Positions 46,380-50,091 of a DNA stretch of 64,000 bases are shown here, piece by piece. Every line of letters begins with the position of its first letter. Positions within the stretch are counted from its first letter, which is position 1. The translations under genes were made by a program, and so were the position numbers. The DNA lies in sequence record PQ327946.1. One strand, written 5' to 3'. This DNA is from a phage. Under the pieces are notes generated by a model. The model was not told the origin of the DNA and ran no database searches. It saw only the letters and a list, made by a program, of their open reading frames with translations.

Positions 46380-46688
46380 TTACATAAGAAGCAAACGCTC
46401 CGCCGGAGTACCATCAACCGAAATTACTTTATCAAGGCGGAAAGAACGCCACTGGCCTAACTTGGTATCGAATGCTCGAACTGATTCACGAGGTTCATAA
46501 CGAACTTCTGTTGCTGGATTGTTATTTTCATATTTGACTTCAAGTTCATCGCGCGAAGCAAACATAGTGCGTACCTCGCCGTTAGCCTTTTCAAATACAA
46601 CACAATGAACGCCTACAGACAGAATAGTTTTAATACGTTCACGAAGAACCATAGTTTCTTGTTCAGTTAAAATCATATTATTCACCAC
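46380..46688 (-). CDS. 31.1: hypothetical protein (T4 31.1 position)
   Basis: 102 aa between cd and 31; alternative start at 46676 (MILTEQ...) lies 1 nt after the cd stop. Confidence 0.6.
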   Translation of the reverse strand: MVNNMILTEQETMVLRERIKTILSVGVHCVVFEKANGEVRTMFASRDELEVKYENNNPATEVRYEPRESVRAFDTKLGQWRSFRLDKVISVDGTPAERLLLM

Positions 46689-47259
46689 AAAAGTTTCGGA
46701 TTTGTTCCCAATTCAGAGAACGAAGATTATTACGAGAGTACTGAATTACTTCAATACCAGCTTGTTTAAGAATGTCTGCCCAATTTTCAGGAGATCGGTC
46801 ATATAATTCTGCATATACAACCTTTTTAATACCTGACTGTGTAATAGCTTTAGTGCAATCAGGACATGGAGAAAGTGTCGTATACAACGTAGCACCTTCA
46901 ATAGAATTACCTTTGCGAGCAGCAAACAAAATGGCATTCAATTCTGCATGGATTTCATTATTAGCAGACCATGCACTATGAGCGGCCCGATGTTCTTTAG
47001 CCAAAACAAAATTATCTGCCCGTCCAAATGATGTAGTGCCTTCTTTATGCCCAGCAACGATGACCGGGCTTGGTTTATTCTTCAACCAACCGTTTTCGGA
47101 TGCATGTTCACAACAGTTAACACCACCTGCAGGTGAACCATTATATCCGGTAGAAATAATGCGTCCATCTTTTTCAATGACGGCACCAACTTTCCATGAA
47201 CAACATTTTGATTCTTGAGAAATCAGATATGCAATCTGAAGGTATGTGCTAGCTTTCAT
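46678..47259 (-). CDS. cd: dCMP deaminase
   Basis: 193 aa; zinc-binding cytidine/dCMP deaminase motifs (CEHA...SPCPDC); matches T4 Cd. Confidence 0.95.
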   Translation of the reverse strand: MKASTYLQIAYLISQESKCCSWKVGAVIEKDGRIISTGYNGSPAGGVNCCEHASENGWLKNKPSPVIVAGHKEGTTSFGRADNFVLAKEHRAAHSAWSANNEIHAELNAILFAARKGNSIEGATLYTTLSPCPDCTKAITQSGIKKVVYAELYDRSPENWADILKQAGIEVIQYSRNNLRSLNWEQIRNFCGE

Positions 47260-48251
47260 TATTGAACCTTATTAATATAAGTTAACAGCTCTTTAGTTTG
47301 TTCCCAACTGATGCACGCATCGGTAATGGAAACGCCATAGGACATATTATCAGAAATTTTTTGATTTCCTTCATGTAGGAATGATTCTATCATAATTCCT
47401 TTGACCAAATCATTAGCTGCTAAATTTTTACCAATACCAATTTGATTGCTATAATGTCCAGCAGCGTTTGCATGGCTACAGTCAACCATTACATAATGAT
47501 TCAGACCTACTGCACTTGCTTTGTTAGAAGCTTCTTGAATATCAGAAGAATGATAGTTCGGGCCGTTGGTCCCGCCACGCAATACGATATGCGTATTCTG
47601 ATTACCTTCAGCTTCAACAATGCCTACAGTACCATCGACGTCCATACCCATATACCGATGAGGCCAGGCGGCACTATACATCGCGTCTGTAGCTACTTTA
47701 ATAGAACCATTGGTTGCGTTCTTGAAGCCTACGCACATCGGTAGACCTGAAGCAATTTCACGATGTGTCTGACTTTCAGTCGTACGGGCGCCAATAGCAA
47801 CCCATGAGAAAATACCAGAAAGATACTTAATCGTGAATGGGTCTAATACTTCAGTTGCTAATGGAAGTCCCATACGTAGAAGTTTACGACACAATGTTCG
47901 TGCAACTATAAGACCGTGGTTCATATCAAAACTTCCGTCAAGATATGGATCATTTACAAGACCTTTCCAACCTACGGTAGTTCGAGGCTTTTCAAAATAA
48001 ACGCGCATCACTAACAGAACATTAGGAAGACGAGTTTGAAGTTCAGCCAGACGTTTGCCGTATTCAACAGCAGCAATAGGGTCATGAATTGAACAAGGAC
48101 CTACAACAATAAGTTTGCGTGGGTCTTCACCGTTCATAATCGAATTAACTTGTTCGCGATGAGAAGCCACTTGTGATGCGTAAGCTTCCGACAAAGGAAT
48201 AATCTCAGCCAGTTCTTTTGGAGAAATAAGTTTTCTGATGACAGGTAACAT
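47259..48251 (-). CDS. 3-deoxy-7-phosphoheptulonate (DAHP) synthase, class I (AroG/AroF/AroH-like)
   Basis: 330 aa; LIVVGPCSIHDP, RVYFEKPRTTVGWKGLVNDP, IGARTTESQTHREIASGL, ITDACISWE all align with E. coli AroG; stop overlaps cd start (TAATG). Confidence 0.85.
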   Translation of the reverse strand: MLPVIRKLISPKELAEIIPLSEAYASQVASHREQVNSIMNGEDPRKLIVVGPCSIHDPIAAVEYGKRLAELQTRLPNVLLVMRVYFEKPRTTVGWKGLVNDPYLDGSFDMNHGLIVARTLCRKLLRMGLPLATEVLDPFTIKYLSGIFSWVAIGARTTESQTHREIASGLPMCVGFKNATNGSIKVATDAMYSAAWPHRYMGMDVDGTVGIVEAEGNQNTHIVLRGGTNGPNYHSSDIQEASNKASAVGLNHYVMVDCSHANAAGHYSNQIGIGKNLAANDLVKGIMIESFLHEGNQKISDNMSYGVSITDACISWEQTKELLTYINKVQ

Positions 48252-48371
48252 AACAATCCTTAGGAGATATAAACAGATTCTGATTCAACAATACCTTTAA
48301 CCGGATTAGACAGGCTAAGTTGGTAGTTCTCAGATTTATGACCATTCACGATAGTAATGAGATAGCTCTCA

Positions 48372-48608
48372 TTATAGTGTTCCATATACTCGAGTTGCTT
48401 CAACAAGACCATCACTGCCTAATTTAAGATTAGTAATTTGGTCACCATCTTTAGGATTAACGATTATGAGAAAAGAACGTGGAGATTCTTGAATAACTCG
48501 TAATGTTGCATCTTGGAAACGTTCAGACACTTTATTGATGAGTGCTTGAGCAAATTCTTTTACTTTAATCTGAAATTCGTGTACTGTAATTGGGTTTTCA
48601 CTTAGCAT
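48372..48608 (-). CDS. hypothetical protein (78 aa)
   Basis: ORF with early promoter and conserved leader upstream. Confidence 0.55.
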   Translation of the reverse strand: MLSENPITVHEFQIKVKEFAQALINKVSERFQDATLRVIQESPRSFLIIVNPKDGDQITNLKLGSDGLVEATRVYGTL

Positions 48609-48636: not shown

Positions 48637-48666
48637 ATAGTATCACAACTCCACCATGTTGTAAAC
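48637..48666 (-). promoter_or_regulatory. early promoter (GTTTACA-N17-TACTAT)
   Basis: Minus strand GTTTACAACATGGTGGAGTTGTGATACTAT, then leader CCAACAAATGAGGAAATAGAA-ATG. Confidence 0.6.
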
Positions 48667-49176: not shown

Positions 49177-49357
49177 TTAACCATTCAATTGCCTGGTCGA
49201 CGTTATCAAATATACTGCCGTCCAACCATTCTTCATGTTCATAGTCCAGCACATCAATACCGAACCGTCCATTTACTAAAGGCCATACGCAGAAGAAAAA
49301 GCATTTACGTTTTTCAATTTCTTCGATTGTACGAAAAATCTTTTCGATATTATTCAT
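49157..49357 (-). CDS. hypothetical protein (66 aa)
   Basis: ORF in cd-pseT interval, overlapping neighbours by a few codons. Confidence 0.45.
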   Translation of the reverse strand: MNNIEKIFRTIEEIEKRKCFFFCVWPLVNGRFGIDVLDYEHEEWLDGSIFDNVDQAIEWLNENYVR

Positions 49358-50072
49358 AGGTTTTCCATTTGCGGCCTAATTGCCAATCAGGATGGCTCAA
49401 TCTAGGGTCGTTTTCATCTGTTGTAGAAGATTTCTTACCTGAAATATGGATAAGCCATTTTCTGGATTTAGCTGCTTTAGAATAGTTTTCTTTTGCCTTA
49501 TCTGAACGAATCTTACCTTTATTCGCTTCGGATATTTTATTACCCCATTCTATAATAGCTTCTTCGCTCATAAAATCTTTTACATTTTTACCGTACATAG
49601 GATTATTTTCGCCTTCAAATGAATTACCATTTTTAAGACGACTTTCTTTAGATTTAATCCCATGCCCTGGTAATTTCTTGCCTTTAATCCATGGCACGGC
49701 ACCGTTTTTATATCTCTGTTTTTGTGTTTCTGAAATTTTTAATGAAGTTTCAGGGCTGGAATTAACATTAATACGGTTTTCATTGATATAATCCCAGCCT
49801 CCTTCTCCACCAGGTTTCAAATTATAATTAGTATCCAATTTTATAAATTCTTTAGTTACTAATTCGGCTTCTAAATCATATGCTTCTTGTTTAGTTTCAA
49901 ATATTTTTATGATTTCTTTATTAAAAGAATCTTTACCATATTTTGATTCGGCATTTTTAAAAGCTGTACCAGAACCTAAATAAGAATCATTTTCTTTTAA
50001 GGTCTTATGAACCCCTATATAAATTTTGTTGTTAACCAAACATGTGGTTTTATACACAGTGTACTTTTCCAT
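49350..50072 (-). CDS. seg-like GIY-YIG homing endonuclease
   Basis: Start moved to ATG (MEKYTVYKTTCLVNNKIYIGVHKT); GIY-YIG module plus DSYLGSG...KYG motif; TATAAATA late promoter 20 nt upstream; no seg gene at this position in T4. Confidence 0.75.
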   Translation of the reverse strand: MEKYTVYKTTCLVNNKIYIGVHKTLKENDSYLGSGTAFKNAESKYGKDSFNKEIIKIFETKQEAYDLEAELVTKEFIKLDTNYNLKPGGEGGWDYINENRINVNSSPETSLKISETQKQRYKNGAVPWIKGKKLPGHGIKSKESRLKNGNSFEGENNPMYGKNVKDFMSEEAIIEWGNKISEANKGKIRSDKAKENYSKAAKSRKWLIHISGKKSSTTDENDPRLSHPDWQLGRKWKTYE

Positions 50073-50091
50073 TAGAATCACCTCTATAGAT

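Follow-up and report, generated by a model that had tools for sequence, protein, structure and literature searches.

RlhA, which makes ho5C in rRNA, requires prephenate and Fe-S (PMC5727448), and TrhP is the anaerobic, prephenate-dependent alternative to the O2-dependent TrhO (PMC6599085). In UbiU/V, prephenate is the consumed oxygen donor (PMC10990095). The DNA of RB69-like phages carries arabinosyl-5-hydroxycytosine, and 5-hydroxycytosine replaces all cytosine. RB69 gp48 is O2/FMN-dependent and, together with a kinase, is sufficient to make 5-hydroxy-dC aerobically; gp50 has no assigned function (PMC13326640). At the entry of the shikimate pathway, the main chain of the inhibitor of DAHP synthase (DAHPS) is bound by Q151 and S180, and P150L, Q151, S180F and F209A/S variants are feedback-resistant (PMC9529685). 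DAHPS genes are also carried by phages, where a phage genome paper reads the gene as an aromatic amino-acid auxiliary metabolic gene (AMG; PMC11845039).

The window, by which we mean the whole 64-kb stretch of DNA analyzed, derives from a Mosigvirus (RB69-like) and contains a DAHPS gene directly upstream of the dCMP deaminase gene. The DAHPS gene lies on the minus strand, a correction to the earlier description.

47259..48251, minus strand: class I-alpha (AroF-like) DAHP synthase coding sequence, 330 aa, stop codon included (ORF and profile matches)
46678..47259, minus strand: dCMP deaminase gene (cd), 193 aa, directly downstream of DAHPS (Pfam dCMP_cyt_deam_1, 1.5e-26; annotation of relatives)
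47257..47261, minus strand: TAATG shared by the end of DAHPS and the cd start (read from sequence)

The identification of the 330-aa translation made by the sequence-only reading is upheld: its four signature motifs (LIVVGPCSIHDP, YFEKPRTTVGWKGL, IGARTTESQTHRE and ITDACISWE) are all present, and a profile search places the protein in the class I DAHP synthase family above curated cutoffs. Scores against Pfam DAHP_synth_1 (PF00793; E=6e-75, 252 bits, cutoff 25.5) and, over the full length, NCBIfam TIGR00034 aroFGH (427.9 bits, cutoff 173.2) rule out a chance match; the AroF-type subfamily model NF009395 is also exceeded (455.7 bits, cutoff 343). The end-to-end alignment with AroG that had been reported holds at 48% identity, but AroG is not the nearest isozyme, AroF being closer at 51%. 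The best PDB match is AroF (6AGM, E=1.6e-104), so that the fold can be regarded as already fixed by sequence identity to a solved structure. A KDO8P synthase-type specificity is not indicated, since the aroFGH equivalog cutoff is exceeded and the KPRT motif is kept where KdsA has a KANRS-type motif; no KdsA model appeared among the NCBIfam matches. The gene itself is not new. It is already annotated in about 200 phage records and has its own PHROG (5045, phage phospho-2-dehydro-3-deoxyheptonate aldolase; E=6.5e-182, residues 1-330 on profile positions 8-337 of 341), and two papers mention phage DAHPS as an AMG; the novelty first assigned to it was too high. Discussion of the regulatory-site changes described below, or of an association with U32 proteins and chorismate mutase, was not found in the searchable literature, and a search whose coverage stopped short of He et al. 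2026 (Nat Chem Biol) returned nothing linking phage DAHPS, chorismate mutase, U32 and 5-hydroxycytosine.

Alignment with AroG shows the metal, PEP and erythrose-4-phosphate (E4P) residues to be intact throughout. The metal ligands C53, H260, E289 and D311 correspond to AroG Cys61, His268, Glu302 and Asp326 and are invariant in 24/24 phage-clade proteins, while R83, K88-P89-R90-T91 (KPRT), G154-A155-R156, K177 and R225 correspond to R92, K97-P98-R99-T100, G163-A164-R165, K186 and R234 of AroG. The best explanation of this conservation is that the protein would be an active enzyme, forming DAHP from PEP and erythrose-4-phosphate. The inhibitor-binding features of AroG chosen for comparison were the N-terminal extension together with D6, D7, I10, P150, Q151, S180 and F209, and in this alignment an AroG-type inhibitor site, comprising extension and pocket, was not found in phage DAHPS. 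The N-terminus is about 10 residues shorter than that of AroG, as had been noted; equivalents of AroG residues 1-9 are absent, and they are missing in 24/24 phage-clade proteins. The whole clade also carries the pocket replacements P150I, Q151K (or R), S180P and F209Y (AroG numbering), positions at which bacterial homologues have P in 86/95, Q in 95/95, S in 94/95 and F in 95/95. The protein scores below the AroG equivalog cutoff (366 against 568) and the AroH equivalog cutoff (386 against 463). Lowered feedback sensitivity, which had been proposed from the short N-terminus, is thus likely and has a stronger case than before, with four replaced pocket residues added to the missing segment, and we infer that tyrosine/phenylalanine feedback inhibition would be lost. 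As the residues I-K, P and Y are natural, fixed and conserved, the inhibitor site may have been fixed in an open state or given a new purpose, and not simply damaged.

In a distance tree the phage DAHPS proteins form a single clade with bootstraps of 100/100. Identity between the clade and E. coli AroF is about 50%, enzymes of Planctomycetota or Pseudomonadales are no nearer and no farther, and the GC3 of the gene is that of its phage neighbors. Capture from an enterobacterial host, suggested earlier, finds no support in these observations; membership of an old, monophyletic phage clade argues against any recent host capture. Among the approximately 140 Mosigvirus records the protein is 98-99% identical; in other T4-like genera, where the locus is unchanged, identity is 58-77%. 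Identities within the clade as a whole span 56-99%, and the syntenic position is found in at least four genera. Comparison with other genera gives dN/dS values of 0.15-0.19, showing that the gene is under purifying selection.

The surroundings of the gene are those of a compact block, with the following features upstream of DAHPS and at its borders.

48257..48261, minus strand: predicted Shine-Dalgarno-like AAGGA, with 5 nt between it and the DAHPS start codon (sequence reading)
48260..48415, minus strand: small upstream ORF, phrog_15876, 51 aa from GTG (a 41-aa version is annotated in relatives)
48372..48608, minus strand: cd.2-like ORF (DUF7320), 78 aa (Pfam DUF7320, 1.5e-35; homologous to the RB69 cd.2 region)
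48637..48665, minus strand: weak candidate for a promoter of sigma-70 type in front of cd.2, TTTACA-17-TACTAT with TG
47244..47262, no strand: imperfect direct repeat of 19 bp (16/19), right copy, with the real cd start inside it
48357..48375, no strand: left copy of the same repeat (19 bp), encoding MRAISLLS*, a vestigial cd-like start that follows the cd.2 stop directly

The DAHPS stop codon (TAA, 47261-47259) overlaps the cd start codon (ATG, 47259-47257) as TAATG on the coding strand, an arrangement that was described correctly from the outset and that suggests translational coupling of the two genes; the same tight junction occurs in HY126, Entb_45 and F48. DAHPS lies within the pseT-cd block, packed tightly against cd, and so does belong to the nucleotide-metabolism region. 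The genes td and frd, named earlier as neighbors, lie about 10 kb off in the close relative HY126 and are hence not immediate. The cd.2-like ORF is probably the first gene of the transcription unit that holds DAHPS. A scan of the region for promoters and terminators gave no enrichment over shuffles, with 16 promoter-like sites found and 17.5 expected. The two repeat copies bound the DAHPS segment, and RB69 lacks exactly window positions 47263-48356. A mobile homing-endonuclease gene lies near DAHPS.

Among T4-like phages, DAHPS is confined to lineages with a U32-family gene. DAHPS was found in 213 records of the phage collection (Escherichia 125, Klebsiella 25, Shigella 12, Proteus 7, Serratia 6, Enterobacter 4, Edwardsiella 3) and U32 in 222 (137, 26, 14, 7, 7, 4 and 3 in the same order), so that the counts agree by host genus; the T4-like denominators, taken from pseT, are 632 Escherichia, 285 Klebsiella and 56 Enterobacter records. 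U32 was present in all DAHPS-positive lineages cross-checked (F2, LF82-8, p000v, Entb_45, PEi20, CP-p-KP-21072, VAC36, EcS1, CHI14 and phiP4-3). Shared ancestry accounts for part of this co-distribution within the T4-like group. T4-like phages of Acinetobacter, a strict aerobe, carry arabinose and ThyA-like genes, with the isomerase in 57 records; Acinetobacter is absent from the listed host groups of the U32 matches and hence accounts for at most three records, and its DAHPS matches come from only four records, all under 60% identity (47% in the one shown). DAHPS is missing from the cd locus of RB69, and from that locus in Tegunavirus, which has U32 and chorismate mutase; under laboratory conditions at least, phages can therefore do without DAHPS. 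RB69, which also has no detectable chorismate mutase, nevertheless grows well.

The U32 gene of T4-like phages lies inside the 5-hydroxycytosine DNA-modification cluster, beside the ThyA-like synthase; this cluster is outside the window and, in T4-like genomes, far from DAHPS. RB69 gp50 matches Pfam Peptidase_U32 with 42.2 bits (cutoff 22.4), and 13 of its cysteines, including a CX4CX3CX2C motif, are invariant across genera, with 10 retained in distant phage homologues. NCBIfam returns only UbiU for it, with a weak score (E=9e-4), and a sequence search of the PDB with gp50 gave no match. Profile comparison with TrhP/RlhA by hhalign (E=4e-4) covers the N-terminal barrel/half only, with a different spacing of the Cys motif, and a MAFFT alignment made for the E-C-C motif is unreliable at its 18-21% identity; on this comparison gp50 appears to be only a distant relative of TrhP/RlhA. 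A chorismate mutase gene, found in 51 phage records, adjoins U32 or overlaps with it in Kanagawavirus, Marfavirus, Tegunavirus and Shewanella phage Thanatos; the protein matches Pfam CM_2 with 40.9 bits (threshold 27) and retains the catalytic R, R, K, E and S. Mosigvirus has no recognizable chorismate mutase, tblastn giving no match in this genus, and host PheA/TyrA would therefore have to serve. RB69 ORF049c occupies the right slot for a hidden chorismate mutase and was rejected as one, having no Pfam or NCBIfam match and an hhalign probability of 0.2% against the phage/TyrA chorismate-mutase profile.

A pairing of U32 with a DAHPS gene was found in unrelated metagenomic phages whose polymerases are PolB or DnaE and which encode gp50-like U32 proteins (51-55% identical, Cys clusters conserved). 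In 4/5 contexts examined, a short class I-beta DAHP synthase gene stands directly downstream of U32, often with a 4-nt overlap, and in one of them dCMP deaminase is the next gene. The I-beta enzyme has no regulatory domain and no significant BLASTP similarity to the DAHPS of the window (E=0.05). Neither DAHPS nor chorismate mutase adjoined U32 in 4/8 contexts sampled from the list of gp50 homologues (L022-L025). Several candidates were set aside: none of the 247-254-aa ORFs that follow U32 in L019, L020 and L025 is a DAHP synthase, P0248 is a KDO-type cluster gene with no U32 linkage, the fecal contig MT837466 carries no annotation that would make it an independent context, and the DAHPS of the non-T4 Aeromonas phage HJ05 (37% identical) has methyltransferase and Asn-synthase-like genes as neighbors, with neither U32 nor chorismate mutase. 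Other neighbors of U32 in the metagenomic phages are genes for polymerase, UDG, dUTPase, thymidylate kinase and dCMP deaminase.

The best explanation of these observations, to which we assign a probability of roughly one in two, is that a deregulated DAHPS supplies prephenate for O2-independent cytosine hydroxylation by the phage U32 protein; both the substrate of that protein and the role of DAHPS as its supplier are inferred. The feedback-blind DAHPS would reopen the entry of the host shikimate pathway despite plentiful aromatic amino acids during infection, and surplus chorismate would be converted to prephenate by the phage chorismate mutase in most related genera, or by host PheA/TyrA in Mosigvirus. 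Prephenate would then be consumed as oxygen donor by a U32-family Fe-S protein of the RB69 gp50 type, giving an O2-independent route to 5-hydroxycytosine beside the known O2/FMN-dependent ThyA-like 5-hydroxy-dCMP synthase. The wider proposal, of a prephenate line in viruses whose cytosine is replaced with glycosylated 5-hydroxycytosine, in which a feedback-blind DAHPS, usually with chorismate mutase, feeds a U32 hydroxylase, and for which two regulator-less DAHPS classes would have been recruited independently, is put forward tentatively, its chances being slightly short of even. Points counted against the prephenate reading are the sufficiency of gp48 with a kinase, the want of DAHPS in RB69 and Tegunavirus and of chorismate mutase in Mosigvirus, the distance between DAHPS and U32, the remote kinship of gp50 to TrhP/RlhA and the partly shared ancestry.

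A more general auxiliary role, in which added chorismate would serve aromatic amino acids or pABA/folate (td, frd, baseplate) with no link to DNA modification, is the view taken in published genome papers (PMC11845039) and draws on the standing of DAHPS as the committed, rate-controlling step and on its place beside cd in the nucleotide-metabolism block. A deregulated enzyme would fit it too; we nonetheless consider it rather unlikely, as it leaves the convergent U32-DAHPS pair of unrelated phages unexplained, and T4-like DAHPS occurs only in U32-carrying lineages (about 25/285 Klebsiella and 4/56 Enterobacter pseT-positive records, matching U32). The chorismate mutase of related DAHPS phages would draw chorismate towards prephenate, away from pABA/folate and Trp, and no prephenate dehydratase, prephenate dehydrogenase or pABA synthase was found within the annotated phage regions examined. 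Both this diversion and the confinement to U32 carriers tell against the folate rationale first offered for the gene, and T4-like phages without DAHPS commonly share td, frd and baseplate folate.

Prephenate or chorismate might instead feed another product, such as quinones (through a UbiU-like U32, for anaerobic energy), a siderophore or a small molecule against host defense. The weak UbiU match of gp50 and the functional diversity of U32 subfamilies (PMC10990095) speak for such a product, which we nevertheless judge improbable, since the U32 gene sits in the cytosine-modification cluster or, in metagenomic phages, among nucleotide genes, and these neighbors indicate a nucleotide substrate. 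Consumption of E4P could be the purpose in itself, drawing the non-oxidative pentose-phosphate pathway towards the pentose phosphates needed for nucleotides and towards arabinose-5-phosphate for DNA arabinosylation: RB69-like phages divert ribulose-5-phosphate to arabinose (PMC13326640), and arabinose-5-phosphate isomerase is found in many DAHPS-positive genomes. The two distributions fit poorly, however, the isomerase being present in the 57 Acinetobacter records without phage-clade DAHPS and mostly missing from the approximately 25 DAHPS-positive Klebsiella phages, and this account, which also leaves chorismate mutase and the U32-DAHPS pairs unexplained, is demoted to a highly improbable one. 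Least credible is a dispensable passenger with no selected function, retained through linkage in a plastic region; its absence from RB69, the short direct repeat at its edges and the nearby homing-endonuclease gene would suit a passenger, and the synteny in at least four genera, the dN/dS of 0.15-0.19, the invariant catalytic residues and the conserved clade-specific substitutions would not.

If the prephenate reading is correct, whole-genome cytosine hydroxylation could proceed without O2, for example in the gut, DAHPS would count as a component of DNA hypermodification and not as an amino-acid AMG, and gp50 would gain a function. With about 6.4e4 cytosines per genome copy, one-for-one consumption would take about 6e4 molecules of prephenate per genome copy and millions per burst. 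As a rough estimate from textbook cell composition, this is a large share of the normal aromatic flux; a demand on such a scale would account for a deregulated enzyme being needed at the pathway entry. The context also offers a reason why only some T4-like phages carry a shikimate entry enzyme, and a candidate function for the U32 gene in DNA modification where the O2/FMN enzyme cannot work, of relevance to phage therapy in anoxic sites and to predicting sensitivity to modification-dependent defenses. A natural, conserved solution to feedback resistance in a DAHP synthase is of interest for the production of aromatic compounds.

Compared with known systems, the phage enzyme stands closest to the Tyr-sensitive E. 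coli AroF (PDB 6AGM/6AGL), with which it shares 51% identity over the full length, the metal ligands, the PEP/E4P residues, the KPRT motif and a Gly at the equivalent of AroG S211, a mark of Tyr-type enzymes. It differs from AroF in being about 10 residues shorter N-terminally and about 25 shorter overall, in replacing the equivalents of P151, Q152 and S181 with I, K and P and an F with Y, and in being phage-borne, with AT-rich codon usage, in a separate clade (bootstraps 100/100). The pocket positions changed in engineered feedback-resistant AroG/AroF (P150L, Q151, S180F, F209A/S, D146N; PMC9529685) overlap those changed in the phage, where the residues I-K, P and Y are natural and fixed and resistance is predicted from sequence. 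The DAHPS annotated in Klebsiella phage KLB31 and Escherichia phage phiC120, and in HX01, JS09 and HY126 (PHROG 5045), is the same gene. The minimal I-beta DAHP synthases adjacent to U32 in metagenomic phages belong to the same reaction family and also have no regulatory module, but they are of a different subfamily and adjoin U32 directly, whereas the DAHPS of T4-like phages is distant from it.

The bacterial U32 proteins RlhA (ho5C2501, 23S rRNA), TrhP (ho5U34, tRNA) and UbiU/UbiV (ubiquinone) have conserved Cys clusters, as does gp50. The chemistry proposed for the phage would resemble that of RlhA and TrhP in hydroxylating C5 of a pyrimidine and in drawing on the shikimate pathway as far as prephenate, and gp48 and gp50 would parallel TrhO and TrhP as an O2-dependent enzyme with an O2-independent alternative. 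In the bacterial systems the precursor comes from housekeeping enzymes, whereas the phage would bring its own DAHPS, and mostly chorismate mutase too, to meet a demand that would be stoichiometric for a whole genome.

The open reading frame that abuts the dCMP deaminase gene (cd) is, by every family comparison made, beyond doubt a member of the DAHP synthase (DAHPS) family, which catalyzes entry to the shikimate pathway. Its TAA stop codon and the cd ATG share the sequence TAATG, as the sequence-only reading had claimed, and an AAGGA precedes the DAHPS ATG by 5 nt.

47259..48251, minus strand: DAHPS, 330 aa, a real ORF at exactly the position given earlier, with all four previously quoted motifs in its translation
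46678-47259, minus strand: dCMP deaminase cd, full-length, 193 aa, overlapping the DAHPS stop
47244-47262 and 48357-48375: 19-bp imperfect direct repeat (16/19) flanking DAHPS and bounding the segment absent in RB69

The window protein matches Pfam DAHP_synth_1 (E=6e-75) and scores 428 bits for the NCBIfam aroFGH equivalog (cutoff 173) and 456 bits for the AroF-type subfamily NF009395 (cutoff 343); it falls below the NCBIfam equivalog cutoffs for AroG and AroH. The likeness to AroG noted earlier stands at 48% identity, but AroF is nearer (51%; AroH, 45%) and provides the closest solved structure (E. coli AroF, 6AGM, E=1.6e-104), with AroG behind. Just downstream of cd, an ORF with a GTG start (46380-46688, minus strand) overlaps the cd end by 11 nt; it carries a WYL_2/Sm-like SH3 domain (Pfam, 2.2e-09) and is labelled 'tail fibers protein' or gp31.1, varying among relatives. 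The cd of RB69 (region L008, 9743-10252) is annotated as 169 aa, against 193 aa in the window, the length of T4 Cd; this probably reflects a start-codon or sequencing issue of the old record.

Residues were compared in a 123-sequence alignment that includes 24 phage-clade members and 95 cellular homologues. All phage DAHPS retain four metal ligands and ten PEP/E4P residues unchanged, and every one lacks the equivalents of AroG residues 1-9. At AroG position 150, 23/24 phage-clade proteins have Ile, while 86/95 cellular homologues have Pro; at position 151 the clade has Lys (Arg in one) in place of the Gln of 95/95 homologues, and at positions 180 and 209 Pro and Tyr, present throughout the clade, replace Ser (94/95) and Phe (95/95). 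Feedback-resistant AroG variants include P150L, changes at Q151, S180F and F209A/S, and the inhibitor main chain is contacted by Q151 and S180 (PMC9529685). As the phage changes fall at the sites of these variants, inhibition by Tyr/Phe has likely been lost, in line with the shorter N-terminus and lower feedback sensitivity proposed previously. The replacement residues are themselves conserved, so the regulatory pocket may alternatively have been re-purposed.

Phage DAHPS proteins form a single clade (100/100 NJ bootstraps) whose sister group includes AroF together with a range of bacterial sequences. The closest cellular sequences, drawn from several phyla, share ~50-55% identity with it. The GC content of the gene (40.9%; GC3 0.29) is that of neighboring phage genes, the order pseT, small ORFs, DAHPS, cd, 31 is common to Mosigvirus, Kanagawavirus, Marfavirus and Bragavirus, and dN/dS against the latter three genera is 0.15-0.19. 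These features point to a long-standing gene of this phage lineage rather than a recent capture from E. coli, and an enterobacterial origin, raised as a question earlier, is not borne out. RB69 lacks exactly 47263-48356, the stretch enclosed by the two repeat copies, pointing to its gain or loss through recombination at the 19-bp repeat; the upstream copy (48357-48375) encodes a vestigial cd-like start, MRAISLLS followed by a stop, directly after the cd.2 stop. An ORF for a GIY-YIG-like homing endonuclease (243 aa; 49350-50081, minus strand), placed between pseT and the cd.x ORFs, looks like a mobile insertion: the alignment of most close relatives ends at ~49288, and the stretch occurs only in PNJ-9 and WFbE185, annotated there as 'putative intron endonuclease'.

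By tblastn the DAHPS gene is present in 213 phage records, ~140 of them Mosigvirus (95-99% identity); other carriers include Kanagawavirus (77%), Klebsiella, Serratia and Erwinia T4-likes (67%) and the Proteus group (58%). Its distribution follows that of the U32-family protein typified by RB69 gp50, and both are present in 10/10 genomes cross-checked by accession, from six lineages.

DAHPS and U32 records in the phage collection, by host genus in the phage name; denominators are T4-like pseT records.
Escherichia: DAHPS 125, U32 137, pseT-positive 632
Klebsiella: DAHPS 25, U32 26, pseT-positive 285
Shigella: DAHPS 12, U32 14, pseT-positive 83
Proteus: DAHPS 7, U32 7, pseT-positive not listed
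Serratia: DAHPS 6, U32 7, pseT-positive not listed
Enterobacter: DAHPS 4, U32 4, pseT-positive 56
Edwardsiella: DAHPS 3, U32 3, pseT-positive not listed

This co-distribution among T4-like phages owes part to shared ancestry. Arabinose-5-phosphate isomerase tracks DAHPS less well than U32 does, occurring in 57 Acinetobacter records, all without phage-clade DAHPS. Acinetobacter is absent among the U32 host groups listed (3 records at most); among the matches listed, phages of this strict aerobe have the O2-dependent route only, while phages of facultative anaerobes carry U32.

In Mosigviruses and relatives cytosine is replaced by arabinosylated 5-hydroxycytosine, the hydroxyl being made by RB69 gp48, a ThyA-like, FMN- and O2-dependent enzyme; gp50, in the same gene cluster, was given no defined role (PMC13326640). 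Cellular U32 proteins carry out hydroxylation without O2 and in dependence on prephenate: RlhA forms 5-hydroxycytidine in 23S rRNA (PMC5727448), TrhP serves anaerobically as the counterpart of O2-dependent TrhO in making 5-hydroxyuridine (PMC6599085), and UbiU/V consume prephenate as oxygen donor (PMC10990095). The resemblance of gp50 to TrhP/RlhA is remote. Phage U32 proteins (RB69, Entb_45, F48, phiR1-RT, Thanatos-2) are unusually conserved, 81-87% identical across genera with 13/13 cysteines invariant; identities in the same genera are 58-77% for DAHPS and 39-66% for chorismate mutase.

A small chorismate mutase adjoins, and usually overlaps, U32 in Kanagawavirus, Marfavirus, Tegunavirus and Shewanella phage Thanatos. 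Found in 51 records, this enzyme scores above threshold for Pfam CM_2, and its catalytic Arg, Arg, Lys, Glu and Ser are retained. Tegunavirus lacks DAHPS at the locus, no recognizable chorismate mutase was found in Mosigvirus, and in RB69 DAHPS is missing at the cd locus and chorismate mutase is not detectable. The slot of the 75-97-aa mutase holds in Mosigvirus, between the U32 and ThyA-like genes, an unrelated ORF of similar size (79 aa, phrog_8601; RB69 region L004, 6257-6496, minus strand).

Metagenomic phages with PolB or DnaE also encode gp50-like U32 (51-55% identical, ten Cys conserved), near UDG, dUTPase, thymidylate kinase and dCMP deaminase genes. In four contigs U32 is followed directly by a class I-beta DAHPS of 248-260 aa (DAHPS 237 bits vs KDO8PS 63 bits), the two genes often overlapping by 4 nt. 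BLASTP of this DAHPS against the window enzyme gave no significant similarity; it begins at the catalytic barrel, without the regulatory domain of its 339-aa bacterial relatives. By sequence, two DAHPS classes, each minus its allosteric module, thus came to accompany the same U32 gene. ORFs of similar size (247-254 aa) after U32 in contigs L019 (11175-11939), L020 (9855-10601) and L025 (11089-11832) are not I-beta DAHPS and matched no Pfam or NCBIfam family. One contig has the order U32, DAHPS, dCMP deaminase; a dCMP-deaminase-family gene abuts U32 or the pair in L019-L021 and a 58.5-kb contig (JGI 3300075153), all non-T4 phages. The arrangement resembles the DAHPS-cd junction of the window, and the deaminase may belong to the same nucleotide-modification module.

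Distribution, chorismate mutase, the independent lineage and host oxygen lifestyle connect DAHPS to the presumed U32 chemistry. We give a probability of about 0.5 to a model in which phage DAHPS, blind to feedback, would open entry to the shikimate pathway, the resulting prephenate would go to the phage U32 protein, and U32 would hydroxylate cytosine without O2. Host DAHP synthases are repressed and inhibited in amino-acid-rich, anoxic habitats (aroF/G/H regulation). Were each hydroxyl to cost one prephenate, the ~6.4e4 cytosines per genome copy would require millions of molecules per burst.

A general auxiliary metabolic role, as in two genome papers that name such a gene for aromatic amino acids (PMC11845039, PMC8022965), is in our estimate unlikely; its folate version, one of two offered by the sequence-only reading, is argued against by the U32-adjoining mutase, which commits chorismate to prephenate. 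Supply of other prephenate- or chorismate-derived products, a sink for erythrose-4-phosphate, or a mere passenger gene each seem less probable again. The earlier interpretation as a whole is therefore partly supported, its underlying observation being sound.

As a gene, phage DAHPS is already known and is annotated in most of the records carrying it: the window protein matches PHROG 5045 ('phospho-2-dehydro-3-deoxyheptonate aldolase', 6.5e-182), and the window itself belongs to Mosigvirus, sharing 98-99% identity with PNJ-9, HX01, HY126, JS09 and others. We found no experimental work on phage DAHPS in the literature searched, nor, in the searchable literature, discussion of its deregulated design or of the apparent link to U32-based DNA hydroxylation; both are directly testable.
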